Virus record (IMG/VR): IMGVR_UViG_3300016486_001578
DNA length: 64,000 bases
Reading direction: 5' to 3' (one strand)
Origin: a virus
Lineage: Duplodnaviria; Caudoviricetes
The number at the start of each line of letters is the position of its first letter. Position 1 is the stretch's first letter. A model generated the notes under the pieces. It did not search any database. It was not told where the DNA came from and saw only the letters and a program-made list of their open reading frames with translations. Shown piece by piece: positions 2,812-9,883 of the stretch. A program made the position numbers and the translations under genes.

Positions 2812-3981
2812 ATGTTAGATAATTATGAAATAATAGAAGCAGATTCTCTATTAGAAGGAAAATATGATAGACCACTATATGATAAATTTATTGAAGCTTA
2901 TGAAGTAGACAACTTAGAGGTTGATACACCAAATGGTTGGATAAAGATAGAAGGAATTGGTAAAACTATTGAATTTTATGAATGGGAAATACAAACATCT
3001 GGTGGAAAACATCTAATATGTGCAGATAAACATCTATTATATAGGTGTGATAATATGAATTTTTATAATAAAAAATGTGACATAACAGAAATATACTGCC
3101 AAGATTTGAATATAGGTGATTTTATAATGACTAAGGATGGTCCTGAGATGTTGATGGATATTTATAAAAATGGTAATAAATCGAATATGTATGATTTACA
3201 ATTATCAGAAGGCTCTAATAAACAATACTACACAAATGATATACTTAGTCATAATTCACTTTGGATGCAAAACTTTGCAGTTAGGTCTGCTGATCTTGGC
3301 TATAATGTACTTTACATTACGTTGGAAATGAATGAGCGAAAAGTTATGAAAAGGCTTGGTGCTATGAGATTGAAGATTCCTATAAATGATTATGATAAAA
3401 TGTCTAAAGATAGAGAATTTATAAAAAAGAGAATAAATTCACTTACTAAAAAAACTGGCGCAGTTGGTGGTGATTTGTTTGATAAAAAAATAGGTAAGAT
3501 AATTAGTAAATTCTGGGCTGCAGGAACTGCTAATATATCAGATTTTGATAATTACATTCAAGCACTAAAAGATAAGAGAGATATAAAAATAGATGTTATA
3601 ATAGTTGATTATATCGCTTTAATAGCACCAATTAAAGGTATTGGTTCTGATAGTCTTTATACTAAAGGGAAACAATTAGCAGAGGGTCTAAGAGCACTTG
3701 GTTCTAAATATATGTGTCCTGTTATAACTGGTGTGCAAGTGGCTAAGGATGCTTGGAACTCATCAGATATAACACTTGAGAGCGTACCTGAATCAAAAGC
3801 AATTGCAGAAACAGCAGATACATTCTTTTGTATAATAAGAACAGAAGAAATGAAAAGACAAAACTTATATAGATTTAAACTACTAAAACAAAGAGATGGT
3901 GATTTTTTAAGATCACAAATAAAATTAAACCTTAATCCAACCTTTTTGACTTTAGAGAAGGACGAATTTATAGATCAATAA
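2812..3981 (+). CDS. dnaB: 148-aa split-intein C-part fused to the C-terminal fragment of the helicase
   Basis: Hint motifs EVDTPNGW, CADKH, MYDL and YYTNDILSHN (ends 3255), then +1 Ser: SLWMQNFA...YITLEM...IIVDYI...SESKAIAETAD-type SF4 helicase motifs. Confidence 0.92.
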   Translation: MLDNYEIIEADSLLEGKYDRPLYDKFIEAYEVDNLEVDTPNGWIKIEGIGKTIEFYEWEIQTSGGKHLICADKHLLYRCDNMNFYNKKCDITEIYCQDLNIGDFIMTKDGPEMLMDIYKNGNKSNMYDLQLSEGSNKQYYTNDILSHNSLWMQNFAVRSADLGYNVLYITLEMNERKVMKRLGAMRLKIPINDYDKMSKDREFIKKRINSLTKKTGAVGGDLFDKKIGKIISKFWAAGTANISDFDNYIQALKDKRDIKIDVIIVDYIALIAPIKGIGSDSLYTKGKQLAEGLRALGSKYMCPVITGVQVAKDAWNSSDITLESVPESKAIAETADTFFCIIRTEEMKRQNLYRFKLLKQRDGDFLRSQIKLNLNPTFLTLEKDEFIDQ

Positions 3982-4987: not shown

Positions 4988-6184
4988 ATGATAAAAGTTA
5001 TAAAGAGAAATGGTAAGAAGGAACCAGTTATGTTGGATAAAATCCTAGATAGAATAACACAACAAACATATGCGCTAGACAATAAATGGATTAGCCCATT
5101 TGATGTTGCACAAAAAGTTATAGCAGGAGTAGCTCCCAATATAAAAACATCTGTTTTGGATCAATTAGCAATGGAGACTGCTGCTTCTTTGGCTACCAAA
5201 CACCCAGATTATTCAATATTGGCCGCTAGATTGGCTATCACCGCATTACATAAAGAAACTAAAAAAAGCTTTTCTGATACGGTTAAGGATTTATATAAAT
5301 ACACAAATCCAATAACAGGCAAGAAAGCACCGATTGTGTCTAGGGAGTTTTATGAATTAGTAAAAGACAACAAAGATGAGTTAGATTCTGCTATCGTCCA
5401 TTCGAGAGACCATAATTTTGATTATTTTGGATACAAAACACTTGAGAAGTCCTATTTACTTAAAACAAACGGTAAAGTAGTTGAGAGACCACAATATATG
5501 TATATGAGAACTGCTTTACAAATATGGGGTGATAATTTAGAAAAAGTTAAATCGACTTATAACTTATTATCAGAGGGGTATTACACACATGCAACACCTA
5601 CTTTGTTTAATTCGGGCACCAATAGGCAACAATTATCTTCTTGTTTTTTATTAGATACAGAATCTGATTCTATTGAGGGTATTTTTAATACACTAAAAGA
5701 ATCTGCTCAAATATCTAAAAATGCTGGAGGAATTGGAATTTCTTTTAATAAAGTTAGAGCAAAGGGAACATATATTGCTGGTACTAATGGCTCATCAAAT
5801 GGTGTTATACCATTCTTGAAGATTTTTAATGAAACTGCTAGAGCGGTTGATCAATGCTTCACACCTGAGTCAAAAGTCATGACAGATAATGGTTTAGTAA
5901 ATATTGATGAAATTAAGAAAGGTGATTCCGTATTAACATCTGATGGTAAGTTTAATAAGGTTTTAGAAAGAAAAGAATTTATAAAAGATGAGGATTTTGT
6001 AGTAATTAAAACAAATAGTGGATTAAATAGGGTAACAAAAGAACACCAAATATTAGTTATTAGAAATCTATCAAAAGATATTGAAGACTCGGCTATTATA
6101 TTAGGTATAAAAAGTGGTGTATATAACATAGAATGGATATCTGCAAATGAACTATTAAAAAGTGATAAAATAGTAAAATATTAA
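4988..6184 (+). CDS. nrdA: Class I ribonucleotide reductase alpha, fragment 1 (ATP-cone to VDQ) plus 109-aa split-intein N-part
   Basis: VIKRNG ATP cone, ERPQ, ATPTLFNSG, LSSCF, GGIG, NETARAVDQ; then CFTPESKV... from nt 5855 with block B TKEH. Confidence 0.95.
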   Translation: MIKVIKRNGKKEPVMLDKILDRITQQTYALDNKWISPFDVAQKVIAGVAPNIKTSVLDQLAMETAASLATKHPDYSILAARLAITALHKETKKSFSDTVKDLYKYTNPITGKKAPIVSREFYELVKDNKDELDSAIVHSRDHNFDYFGYKTLEKSYLLKTNGKVVERPQYMYMRTALQIWGDNLEKVKSTYNLLSEGYYTHATPTLFNSGTNRQQLSSCFLLDTESDSIEGIFNTLKESAQISKNAGGIGISFNKVRAKGTYIAGTNGSSNGVIPFLKIFNETARAVDQCFTPESKVMTDNGLVNIDEIKKGDSVLTSDGKFNKVLERKEFIKDEDFVVIKTNSGLNRVTKEHQILVIRNLSKDIEDSAIILGIKSGVYNIEWISANELLKSDKIVKY

Positions 6185-6245
6185 TTTAATATATAGTAAT
6201 ATATACTTAGGTATATCCAAAATATATTAAATACTATTAAATAGA

Positions 6246-7148
6246 ATGATAAAGTTAACAAATGATATAGTTATAGAAAAGTTTATAAAAAAGCATGGAA
6301 ATAAATATATTTATAATTTAGTTGATTATAAAGGTGCAATTACTAAGGTTAGTATAATATGTAGAAAACATGGTTTATTTAAAATAACTCCAAATAGTCA
6401 TCTAAATGGAAGTGGATGTTATGAGTGTGGTAGAGAAAAAGTAAATGTATCAAGATTAACAAATAATGATAATTTTATAAGTAAATGTAAAATAATTCAT
6501 AATGATATTTATGACTATTCAAAAGTTGAATATAAAGGAATAAAAGAGTATGTTGTTATAATATGTAAAAGACACGGTGAATTTAAACAAAAGTCAGCAA
6601 AGCATCTACAGGGACAAGGTTGTAAAAGATGTAGTAATGAGAAAATGTTTGTTAATTTTGAAAAGATGTGTTTAGATAAATATTTAGGATACTCATATGG
6701 TGAAATGATATACAATGGTATGTATAATAAAATCATAATAACTTGTGAGAAACATGGTAATTTTGAAAAGACACCTATAGATTTTTATCACAAAGAAAGA
6801 CTTTGTCCAAAGTGTATAAATAGATGTAAGTCAAATGATGAAACAAAATGGTTAGATGAATTAAATATACCAATTGATAACAGAAATATCTATATAAAAT
6901 TTGGTAAAAAAACATTTTGTGTTGATGGAATAGACTATGATAATAAAGTAATATATGAATTCTATGGAGACTTCTTTCATGGGAATCCAAATGTTTATAA
7001 GAAAGATGACACTAATCCACTATTAAAGGAAACTTATGGTGAATTATATGATAAAACAATGAAGAAAGAAAAAATGATATTAGATAGTGGTTATAAGTTA
7101 GAAACTATCTGGGAAAGTGAATATAAAAAAGAAAAAAGAAAAATATGA
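6246..7148 (+). CDS. Free-standing putative homing endonuclease (CxxHG zinc-ribbon repeats plus Vsr-like nuclease)
   Basis: Three IxCxxHGxF...CxxC repeats; C-terminal VDG...IYEFYGDFFHGNP...GYKLETIWE; located between intein halves. Confidence 0.85.
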   Translation: MIKLTNDIVIEKFIKKHGNKYIYNLVDYKGAITKVSIICRKHGLFKITPNSHLNGSGCYECGREKVNVSRLTNNDNFISKCKIIHNDIYDYSKVEYKGIKEYVVIICKRHGEFKQKSAKHLQGQGCKRCSNEKMFVNFEKMCLDKYLGYSYGEMIYNGMYNKIIITCEKHGNFEKTPIDFYHKERLCPKCINRCKSNDETKWLDELNIPIDNRNIYIKFGKKTFCVDGIDYDNKVIYEFYGDFFHGNPNVYKKDDTNPLLKETYGELYDKTMKKEKMILDSGYKLETIWESEYKKEKRKI

Positions 7149-8408
7149 GAGATGTAATTGAAAGTGGTACTGAGTGGATTGAAGATCCAGTAGATCTTAA
7201 CTTAGATATAGACAAATTAAGATTTGAAACTATTGAAGATTTAACAATAGAAGAAATAAAAAATCAAAAAGTATATGATTTGGAGGTTGAAAACCAACAT
7301 AATTATATTGTTGATGGACTTGGATTAGTTCACAACGGTGGAGGTAAATAAGCGTCTGCTTCCACTTTAAAAAATCTGGAGGATTGCTGGGAGTTCCTTA
7401 GAGTTATTAATACTACAACGTAAAGAGTGATCTTATGCGTGAATGTTTGAAAAATTAATAAATTGGATAATCAGCAGCCGAGCATCTTAGGGATAAGATG
7501 AAGGTTCAACGACTAATGTTAGTAATGTAGAAAACAAGAAAACAACACGAGTACCAGACACATATTTTATGTGAAGATATAGTCTAAACTTATATGAAAG
7601 TATAAGAGAATAGGATAAAGAGCCTATTGTTAATACACAAATGAAACGCAAAGGAAGTATTGCTATTTATTTAGAGCCTTGGCACGCAGATGTTATGGAC
7701 TTTTTGGACCTTCGTAAAAACCAAGGTAAAGAAGAATTAAGAGCAAGAGATTTATTTTTGGCTATGTGGGTTAATGATCTATTTATGGAGAGAGTTGATT
7801 TAGATGAAGATTGGGCTTTGATGTGTCCGAATGAGTGTGATGGCCTTAATGAAACATATGGTGAAGAATTTAGAGAACTTTATATGAAATATGAAAGTGA
7901 AGGAAGATATAAAAAGGTAGTAAAGGCTAGGGATGTTTGGAATAAAATATTAGAATCACAAATTGAAACTGGTACTCCTTATATGTTATATAAAGATTCT
8001 ATTAACAGAAAATCAAACCAAAAAAACATAGGAATTATTAGAAGTTCTAATCTTTGTTTAGATGGTGATACTATAGTAGAATGTAGAGTCAATGGACTTG
8101 AAAGTGAATTAACAATGGTACAAATTGATGAAATCTTTAAATCTGGGCAAGAGATAGAAGTCTTAAGTATGGATGTTGCGACTGGTTTAAATGAATGGTG
8201 TTTAGTTGATAATTCAGGAATGACCAACAATGATGCTGAAACTATTAAAATAACCGATGAAGAAAATAACACTATTATATGCACACCAGAACATAAAGTA
8301 TGGACTAGTAATAGAGGTTATGTTATGGCTAAAAATTTAGTAGAGACAGATGAGTTAAAAATCAATAAAAAGTCGATTGTTGACAAAGGGTTATATACCT
8401 ATCTATAA
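7145..8408 (+). CDS. nrdA: NrdA fragment 2, spliced join(7145..7345,7644..8408): 64-aa IntC + GGGKRKGS...SSNL + 117-aa IntN
   Basis: VYDLEV...LVHN|GGG; intron removal restores [17 protein letters not shown] in frame; ETGTPY, SSNL, then CLDGDT...CTPEH from nt 8055. Confidence 0.88.
7346..7643 (+). ncRNA. Group I self-splicing intron (ORF-less, phage IA-like), 298 nt
   Basis: P ATTGCTGGGA 7383, Q AATCAGCAG 7469, R GTTCAACGACTA 7504, S AAGATATAGTCT 7574. P1 is exon GTGGAGGT paired with GCTTCCAC (7358-7365) with a U-G at the 5' splice site; P3 TCTGG/CCAGA; P7 GACTA/TAGTC; terminal G7643; P10 GCGT/ACGC. Confidence 0.93.
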
Positions 8409-8515
8409 AGAAGATTGGGAAAATAAATTTAAAAACAAAAAGGAAGAAATAATAAAGTTTCTTAAAAATTATAAAATTGTAAAAAATCAATATACAAAAA
8501 AAAATAAAGAATAGC

Positions 8516-9883
8516 ATGTTAAAAATAGAAAAAGTAAAAAATAGACCGGTTTATGATATAACCGTTAATAAAAATCATAACTTTTATGCTAACGATATAC
8601 TAGTACATAACTGTGCTGAGATTGTAGAAGCAACTGGAATTACTAAATCACAAAAAGATATTCTTAATAATAAGGAGTTATTAGATAGCTTGGGGTTGTC
8701 TGAATTTTATGGAAGAGAATCAGTTAATGAGACTGCGGTTTGTAACTTAGCATCTATTGCACTTCCTAAGTTTGTTAATAAAAACAAAACATATAACTTT
8801 AAGAAATTATATGATGTTGCTTATAATGCGGTTATTAATTTAAATAATGTTATTGATACAAATTATTATCCATCAGAATCTGCTAAATTTTCTAATATAT
8901 TACATAGACCAATTGGATTAGGAGTTCAAGGACTATCAGATGTTTTCTTTATGAGTGGATTTGCTTATGATTCTGAACAAGCCAAACATTTAAATAAAGA
9001 AATATTCGAAACGATATATTATGCATCCATTAAGGCTTCTTGTGACTTAGCAAAAGTTGATGGTGCTTATACAACATATGAAGGTTCTCCTATGTCGGAG
9101 GGTAAGTTCCAATTTGATTTATGGAATGTTACTCCAACTAAGAGGTGGGATTGGGATAAACTTAGACTAGAAGTTTTAGAATATGGTGTTAGAAATTCAC
9201 TAACTGGTTGTATTATGCCAACTGCATCAACTGCTAATATACTTGGTAATGAGGCCTCTTGTGAAGTACAGACATCAAATATGTATACAAGAGGTGTCTT
9301 ATCTGGAACTTTTATTTTAGTTAATAAATACTTAGTTAAAGAATTAGTTAAATTAGGAATATGGGATGATAATATTAGAAGAAAGATAATTTCTGAAAAT
9401 GGATCGGTACAGAATATTCCAGAAATACCAACGAATTTAAAGGAAGTATTTAAAACGGCATATGAAATAAAACAAAAAAATGTTATTGATATGGCGGCTG
9501 ATAGAGGAGCATTTGTTGATCAAACACAATCTATGAATATTTTCATGGATTCTCCAAACTTTGCTAAATTAACTGCTATGCATTTCCATGGTTGGGGTAG
9601 AAGAAGTTTTATGAGAGCTGATGATGGTTCTCCTATTTTGCCTAAAAACAAGGATATAAAGGTAGTTTATGATAAAGATGGAAATCCTAGATTTTATAAA
9701 GATGAGAGAAATTCATTAAAAACTGGTATGTATTATCTTAGAAATAAAGCTAAATCTGATGCTGTTAAATTTACGGTTCAAGATGATAAAAACGTTGAAG
9801 ACCAAGTTTCTGATCTAGAAACACAGATGTCTGATATTGCTTGTAGCCTTGATGATGAAGATTGTCTTGCTTGTGGGTCATAA
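8516..9883 (+). CDS. nrdA: 32-aa split-intein C-part plus NrdA fragment 3
   Basis: VYDITV...FYANDILVHN|CAEI, where +1 is the catalytic Cys of NLCxEI; VCNLASI, RPIGLGVQG, MPTAS, DQTQSMN, KTGMYYLR and C-terminal CLACGS. Confidence 0.95.
   Translation: MLKIEKVKNRPVYDITVNKNHNFYANDILVHNCAEIVEATGITKSQKDILNNKELLDSLGLSEFYGRESVNETAVCNLASIALPKFVNKNKTYNFKKLYDVAYNAVINLNNVIDTNYYPSESAKFSNILHRPIGLGVQGLSDVFFMSGFAYDSEQAKHLNKEIFETIYYASIKASCDLAKVDGAYTTYEGSPMSEGKFQFDLWNVTPTKRWDWDKLRLEVLEYGVRNSLTGCIMPTASTANILGNEASCEVQTSNMYTRGVLSGTFILVNKYLVKELVKLGIWDDNIRRKIISENGSVQNIPEIPTNLKEVFKTAYEIKQKNVIDMAADRGAFVDQTQSMNIFMDSPNFAKLTAMHFHGWGRRSFMRADDGSPILPKNKDIKVVYDKDGNPRFYKDERNSLKTGMYYLRNKAKSDAVKFTVQDDKNVEDQVSDLETQMSDIACSLDDEDCLACGS

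Follow-up and report, generated by a model that had tools for sequence, protein, structure and literature searches.

A split phage intein with glycine at its +1 position in the QGG motif of ribonucleotide reductase: a selected element and its possible route of ligation

The stretch of viral DNA analysed here, 64,000 nucleotides from the IMG/VR record IMGVR_UViG_3300016486_001578 (Duplodnaviria; Caudoviricetes) and called the window below, carries a gene for the alpha subunit of a class I ribonucleotide reductase (RNR), nrdA, that is broken into pieces, as its open reading frames (ORFs) and Pfam matches make clear. The first break is caused by a naturally split intein whose N-terminal half (IntN1) and C-terminal half (IntC1) lie on either side of an endonuclease gene, and whose last residue, an asparagine, is followed by glycine. 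Canonical splicing requires Cys, Ser or Thr at this +1 position. Our evaluation is evenly poised on the reading that this is a functional natural split intein, maintained by selection, which belongs to a large RNR family inserted between the Gln and the Gly-Gly of one motif (the Q/GG site), has Gly at +1, and would ligate its flanks by aminolysis in the manner proposed for type A bacterial intein-like (BIL) domains. The parts of the gene are, in order:

4988 to 5854, + strand: nrdA piece 1, the N-extein, 289 amino acids ending ARAVDQ, containing the ATP-cone, the all-alpha domain and the first 72 barrel positions (Pfam PF03477, PF00317 and PF02867 positions 1-72; translation).
5855 to 6184, + strand: IntN1, 109 amino acids plus stop, with Cys1, block A CFTPESKVMT, block B VTKEH and the end IVKY-stop.
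6246 to 7148, + strand: free-standing endonuclease gene, 300 amino acids, separating IntN1 and IntC1.
7145 to 7336, + strand: IntC1, 64 amino acids, with a conserved acidic N-terminal part, block F VYDLEV..QHNY and block G GLGLVHN.
7337 to 7345, + strand: C-extein codons 1-3, GGT GGA GGT (Gly+1 to Gly+3), which double as the 5' strand of intron helix P1.
7346 to 7643, + strand: group I intron, 298 nucleotides, without an ORF (Rfam RF00028; covariation).
7644 to 8054, + strand: nrdA piece 2, the middle extein, ending IIRSSNL (Pfam PF02867 positions 75-213).
8055 to 8408, + strand: IntN2, 117 amino acids, the N half of a canonical second split intein at the thiyl-radical Cys site (SSNL/CLDGD).
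8516 to 8611, + strand: IntC2, 32 amino acids, ending ILVHN and followed by Cys+1 (CAEIVE); it serves as an internal canonical control.
8612 to 9883, + strand: nrdA piece 3, the C-terminal extein (Pfam PF02867, 345 bits).

The layout is that of a fractured gene, with the IntN half, the endonuclease and the IntC half on the ORFs 4988-6184, 6246-7148 and 7145-7351, respectively. In the first of these ORFs the N-extein ARAVDQ runs without a break into IntN1 (CFTPESKV...VTKEH...KY-stop), and in the last IntC1 is followed by GGGK and a stop, the bases after VHN being GGT GGA GGT AAA TAA. The original prediction, made from the letters of the window, had described a Cys after VDQ and a block B TKEH in IntN1, and an IntC1 that ends in LVHN followed by GGG and thus lacks a +1 nucleophile; the translation and the codons at the junction agree with it on each of these points.

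The comparison with an uninterrupted gene is decisive for the identity of the +1 residue. The nrdA orthologue in the huge-phage genome LR756502.1 reads VDQGGGKRKGS, so that the insert separates Q from G without adding or removing a residue, which makes Gly the +1 residue. Another genome, LR756504.1, has the same split layout with the junction LVHN/GGGK. One observation named as able to overturn the prediction was that 7337-7339 encodes Ser, Cys or Thr; there is no such codon, and contigs of three other salt-lake runs (X3, X4 and X5) match the window over 7336-7399 with zero differing letters. Of the 55 protein clusters (90% clustering) returned for IntC1, 50 end in VHNGGG(K/E) and five consist of calls that are cut short or frameshifted, and the nine loci with flanks all read A(V)DQ/C, VT.xH and VHN/GGG before entering the intron. 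The probability that a sequencing or assembly error, or a correction at the RNA level, hides a Ser, Cys or Thr codon is negligible: we found no point in its support, the bases are the same in contigs of other runs, and dozens of separately assembled contigs from several sources concur. An alternative RNA splice site that would create a Ser codon is likewise ruled out, since covariation in the intron helices P1 and P10 pins the exon junction as GGT/AAR and contiguous members of the family without the intron also have Gly+1. The glycine is confirmed and sequencing error is excluded. In the same salt-lake samples there is also an allele without intein and intron (GATCAAGGTGGCGGAAAAAGAAAAGG, encoding DQGGGKRKG), some contigs of which are much deeper (near 7660; X2, X4 and X5), so empty target sites coexist with the invaded allele.

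In its other sequence features the element has the attributes of a class 1 intein. Position 1 is Cys in 9/9 loci and the C-terminal His-Asn is present as VHN in 50 clusters; the insert is in frame at a conserved host site, absent from close orthologues and linked to an endonuclease; and a HINT domain with blocks A, B, F and G is recognised (Pfam Hint_2, Hint and Intein_splicing; PDB profile matches). Of the sequence hallmarks, only the Cys, Ser or Thr at +1 is missing, with GGT in the window and Gly in all 50 phage clusters that reach the junction.

The IntC1 ORF stops after GGGK because a group I intron follows, and not because the C-extein ends there. A sensitive Rfam search of 7250-7750 found this intron as a match to RF00028 (59.5 bits, E 1.1e-14; gathering score 50), and Rfam at gathering thresholds over the whole window gave no match. 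The intron starts with AAATAA, which supplies the stop, and ends on the terminal G7643 within the ATG at 7641-7643. The 5' splice site follows U7345, where P1 pairs G7338-U7345 with G7358-C7365 and places a U.G wobble at the splice site; the placement of P1 inside the IntC1 coding region by cmscan was dropped for this one on the strength of the U.G pair and covariation. The U.G pair is found in 8/8 loci, 81 pairs are kept across these eight diverged loci, 38 of them with compensatory changes, and P10 covaries with exon 2, which begins AAA CGC AAA GGA. Family score, U.G pair, terminal G and covarying helices are thus all those of a group I intron. Just ahead of the 3' splice site the loci have ATG, CTG or CAG; in L001 and L010 it is CTG or CAG instead of ATG, which means that exon 2 does not start an ORF of its own in these two loci. 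As predicted from these signatures, IntC1 is joined to the middle NrdA fragment only once the intron has been spliced from the mRNA.

An ORF-less group I intron stands exactly 9 nucleotides past the intein site in every split Gly+1 locus examined (L001, L004-L013), and all IntC ORFs therefore stop after GGGK or GGGE; the contiguous Gly+1 inteins of bacteria and metagenomes have no such intron. The joint travel of intein and intron could come from co-conversion during homing, or the two together could shield a single target of the endonuclease. In IMG/VR, no allele with the intron only (VDQGGG, then the intron start) turned up by exact pattern, which is weak evidence, and a search for IntC1 fused directly to its extein, or for a contiguous close relative, gave N-extended ORF calls only.

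Glycine at +1 is not peculiar to this phage. A survey of inteins at the same site with a tally of their +1 residues had been proposed as a check in the original prediction, and it was carried out by searching the IntN profile against 1.84 billion representatives, which gave 2193 matches. Many of the best 150 of 2193 are RNR alpha subunits that a contiguous intein interrupts at this very point ([VI][DN]Q/C); among these best 150 the +1 residue is Gly in 12 metagenomic inteins (HN/GGGKR, GGKR, GGRR or GGVR), Ser in 11 (HN/SG[KR]R) and Cys in 1. In a tree of 32 same-site inteins the Ser/Cys+1 members form a single clade (Shimodaira-Hasegawa-like approximate likelihood ratio test, SH-aLRT, 94) and Gly+1 occupies every other deep branch, the split phage clade included, so that the +1 state needs two changes on this tree versus a mean of 10.2 after shuffling. 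No consistent residue separates Gly+1 from Ser+1 inteins in this set, and because the tree holds a single G/S change, residue differences cannot be read causally. Some metagenomic proteins (P0086, P0097, P0104, P0137 and P0168) match the IntN profile at E ~1e-13 and contain tandem HINT domains with VHN/KGG(G)/CF joints; these are BIL-like arrays with Lys after His-Asn.

The family extends widely into bacteria. A profile search of bacterial genomes with the phage IntN profile gave no matches, and a scan for the back-translated pattern NQCFAP[ED]T in one genome per bacterial species gave at least 120 loci. Among the matches listed, all 91 readable bacterial loci have an HN/GG-type junction, with GG[KR]R directly after the intein, the terminal Asn in 91/91, His-Asn in 87/91 and block B T..H in 90/91, in inteins of ~378 amino acids. 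The penultimate His is replaced by Arg in L088 and L129 (VRN/GG) and by Ser in L107 and L133 (VSN/GG), and one of these four bacterial loci belongs to Halochromatium salexigens DSM 4395. According to the record titles the hosts are Proteobacteria, Chlamydiae, Verrucomicrobia, Actinomycetota, Acidobacteriota and Thermomicrobiales, which brings the spread of Gly+1 to at least 91 bacterial species in at least six phyla, plus more than 50 phage lineages. Cultured carriers include Thiolinea disciformis DSM 14473, Halochromatium salexigens DSM 4395, a Chromohalobacter and a Halomonas. The interrupted gene is the sole class I/II RNR alpha that was found in Thiolinea, Halochromatium and one complete Pseudomonadales chromosome, and no class III RNR gene was found in the Thiolinea or the Pseudomonadales genome. 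Likewise, the RNR alpha barrel matches in LR756504.1 (636 kb) come solely from the fractured gene. An insert that blocks the enzyme could hardly persist in bacterial genomes where the interrupted gene is the only RNR found.

The original prediction had taken the intact motifs on both halves as a sign of selection, a claim that synonymous codon turnover and the ratio of nonsynonymous to synonymous substitution rates (dN/dS) now back. Nine diverged loci show no amino-acid change in Cys1, in the block B Thr and His, in the block F Asp, in the penultimate His or in the terminal Asn; the codons of these residues vary synonymously, with TGT/TGC for Cys1, four codons for the block B Thr, CAC/CAT for both His and AAC/AAT for Asn. 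That the catalytic residues stay fixed despite this codon drift argues that the element is functional. In the IntC alignment 21/66 columns are invariant among 49 sequences of 51-98% identity, and among intein-bearing alleles dN/dS is ~0.33 for IntN, ~0.19 for IntC and ~0.09 for the N-extein, values that are only rough because dS is saturated. The endonuclease gene lies between the halves in 7/9 loci and is gone from L003 (3894-4069, gap 173 nucleotides) and L005 (4867-5000, gap 134 nucleotides), which both keep the two halves and all catalytic residues. Judged by these patterns, the split element is under purifying selection.

A model of the IntN1/IntC1 complex supports the binding of the two halves, with a score of 0.77 versus 0.01 for the best of 3 controls. 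The mark set for this score is reached by 58/80 solved complexes and by 2/110 mismatched pairs; the runs share at least 93% of contacts, the partner's predicted local distance difference test (pLDDT) is at least 72, and Gly+1 and Gly+2 lie in the interface. Such a pass may only be a sign of likeness to solved split inteins. The N terminus of IntC1 is ~25 amino acids longer than that of typical C-inteins, its acidic stretch (7145-7220, residues 1-27) is among the best-conserved parts, and residues 18-30 fall within the modelled interface.

How could an intein with glycine at +1 mature its host protein? In the route that we favour, IntN1 and IntC1 would associate into one HINT fold and Cys1 would form a thioester at Gln-1. 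The terminal Asn would then cyclise, aided by the penultimate His, and release the C-extein with a free Gly alpha-amine. The intein and the RNR barrel, docked by then, would keep this amine beside the thioester, which it would attack directly to leave a native Gln-Gly peptide bond. The junction, the conservation, the selection and the sole-RNR status are observed; each of these chemical steps we infer. Aminolysis is attractive because type A BILs provide a precedent, because the amine of glycine is the least hindered, because the docked barrel would keep the loop ends together after Asn cyclisation, and because the flanks are identical to the uninterrupted gene and show no tails like those of the split NrdA of phage Aeh1. 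Also in its favour, the IntN profile finds its best match to a solved structure in the type A BIL domain 2LWY (E 4.2e-5), ahead of the gp41-1 intein at 7e-3, and type A BILs, which lack a +1 nucleophile, are reported to splice in this way (PMC4031507). An extra block G residue in IntC1 was considered as an adaptation to Gly+1 and dropped, since canonical inteins, e.g. Npu DnaE, have the same spacing.

Several points weigh against this route. Canonical inteins mutated at +1 mostly just cleave, and all the conservation evidence fits cleavage without ligation just as well. The dN/dS values are blurred by saturation. The 2LWY match spans blocks A-B only, and the IntC profile matches ordinary mini-inteins best in the PDB profile search. 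Cleavage products dominate in type A BILs according to a 2014 review (PMC4031507), and a 2020 review states that they cannot ligate and places BILs in hypervariable regions of non-conserved proteins (PMC7765530).

The competing explanation that has to be taken most seriously is that the halves bring the NrdA fragments together and then remove themselves by thioester hydrolysis and Asn cyclisation, leaving a nicked NrdA that stays together non-covalently. We consider this doubtful, and aminolysis by the freed Gly amine and association with self-cleavage, both put forward in the original prediction, are, as far as sequences can tell, the two live options. Self-cleavage explains no less well than ligation why Cys1, TxxH and His-Asn are conserved, and it would agree with the mostly cleaved products of type A BILs (PMC4031507). 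Nor would RNR fragments be without parallel, since NrdA-a and NrdA-b of Aeh1 are fully active as such (PMC3045599) and the naturally split NrdJ of P. aeruginosa is known to work as non-covalent fragments. These known functional RNR splits sit at other sites, however, and the special tails of Aeh1 are absent here, where the flanks are those of the uninterrupted homologue. The nick would moreover fall in the conserved QGG motif (QGGxxR), which the original prediction assigns to specificity loop 2 of NrdA. Gly+1 has long been kept in the sole RNR of its carriers in many phyla, and a nicked loop would need to be tolerated in all of them.

Two further alternatives fit the data poorly. The halves might associate as an inert clamp, with the enzyme working around a reassembled intein on its loop; the complex model backs the association, but association alone would not fix Cys1 and the terminal Asn amid synonymous turnover (50/55 clusters returned, 91 bacterial loci), and a domain of 173 to 380 amino acids in the loop would probably block function, which makes the clamp improbable. 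Still harder to believe is a dead relic that has lost its +1 nucleophile in a decaying or redundant nrdA. The loss of the block F His in some contiguous Gly+1 members and about ten bacterial loci with short or broken ORFs would be in keeping with decay, but the low dN/dS of the N-extein among intein-bearing alleles, and a Gly+1 that is deep and stable on the intein tree, speak against it. A family of this size, whose host gene is the sole RNR alpha found in LR756504.1, in Thiolinea and in the complete Pseudomonadales chromosome, cannot consist of dead relics.

Returning to aminolysis, the interpretation offered in the original prediction is partly supported: it stands as regards a real junction, intact motifs and purifying selection, and it has gained a large family with sole-RNR members; it missed the BIL precedent, the canonical sister clade and the group I intron that must be spliced out before IntC1 is joined to the rest of NrdA. 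A glycine-compatible way of maturing RNR probably exists. We would go further only tentatively, with slightly less than even credence, and propose that the Gly+1 inteins of the Q/GG site could be a fourth class of true mobile inteins, one that ligates efficiently without a side-chain nucleophile at +1.

A mobile intein family has kept Gly+1 through deep divergence, in phages, in at least six bacterial phyla and in tabulated giant-virus examples. The choice is between ligation by a route never demonstrated in any true intein and an RNR that stays nicked for good in many organisms; the biology of inteins and of RNR regulation would gain something new from either. If ligation is true, the huge-phage form, as a natural split intein, would ligate in trans to an N-terminal glycine and leave no Cys, Ser or Thr scar. 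Such an intein would be useful in protein engineering because the requirement for Cys, Ser or Thr at the junction is removed. The small split pair and the cultured carriers, e.g. Thiolinea disciformis DSM 14473, make the question amenable to a direct test.

The surroundings of the element are rich in related features. The endonuclease at 6246-7148 matches phrog_681 'endonuclease' (E 3.8e-33) and also phrog_559, together with Pfam DUF723 and treble-clef repeats. Its matches are confined to PHROGs of generic phage endonucleases and to zinc-finger repeats, and they did not single out the GIY-YIG or Vsr-like type of fractured-gene endonucleases. Its C-terminal 110 amino acids gave no Pfam match, and a PDB search with the full-length protein yielded a single insignificant match (E 0.083). 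The second split intein of nrdA, with Cys+1, has 107 nucleotides between its halves (8409-8515) and no endonuclease there. In related loci this second site holds a contiguous intein (L004) or split halves with an ORF between them (L006, L009 and L012), or it is empty of intein (L001, L007 and L008). A DnaB-like helicase ORF (2812-3981) opens with a long intein C-terminal part ending HN/S, and with this one included three split inteins lie within one 10-kb stretch of the window.

The closest known systems include BILs. In reviews, the Cys, Ser or Thr at +1 is the nucleophile for splicing steps 2 and 4, and BILs are HINT domains without it. For type A BILs, which keep His-Asn, the proposed order is thioester formation, Asn cyclisation and attack by the freed amine (Dassa 2004 and Aranko 2013, as cited in PMC4031507). 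The window element resembles the type A BIL of Clostridium thermocellum (2LWY) in its HINT fold, N-terminal Cys, C-terminal His-Asn and lack of a +1 nucleophile (HN/G here); the Pfam PT-HINT scores of its halves fall under the cut-off. BILs, however, occur in bacterial proteins that are not conserved and often secreted, within their hypervariable regions, and have no link to homing endonucleases (PMC4031507, PMC7765530), whereas the element described here is a mobile, naturally split insert in the invariant QGG motif of an essential enzyme, accompanied by a homing endonuclease and with an intein-like C half.

Viral inteins at the same RNR site are also on record. The CroV RIR intein (Ser+1, C-extein SGRRKG; InBase entry; PMC5784728) has the same insertion point ([VI][ND]Q/C...HN/xG[KR]R) and belongs to the same family, in the sister clade. 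In CroV-type inteins Ser or Cys replaces the first Gly of QGG, which makes the textbook mechanism possible for them. The supplement of Green, Novikova and Belfort 2018 lists the C-exteins GGGKRKG for intein 1 of a Pandoravirus and GGRRKG for Cedratvirus A11 (PMC5784728); both share the site and Gly+1 with the window element but are contiguous, not split, and a text search of the main text of that paper found no mention of glycine. Passages of the Azotobacter chroococcum genome paper place an nrdJa intein at residues 321-690 and do not mention its +1 residue.

The split arrangement has precedents of its own. The fractured genes of Dassa et al. 2009 (PMC2677866) have the same order of host N part with IntN, endonuclease gene, and IntC with host C part. 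Their seven NrdA loci are all at the thiyl-radical Cys site, which is that of the second intein here, and that study describes neither the Q/GG site nor Gly+1 nor the neighbouring group I intron. The NrdA of phage Aeh1 (Friedrich 2007; Crona et al. 2011, PMC3045599) is also split by a mobile endonuclease gene and active from separate polypeptides, but it has no intein motifs, assembles via short tails made by the insertion and is split at another site. The literature searched contained no paper that analyses the missing +1 nucleophile and no mention of an 'RIR1 BIL', although InBase reportedly lists an 'Avin RIR1 BIL'. The window element thus belongs to a very large Gly+1 family, partly catalogued and mechanistically unexamined, as its naturally split phage member next to an intron.

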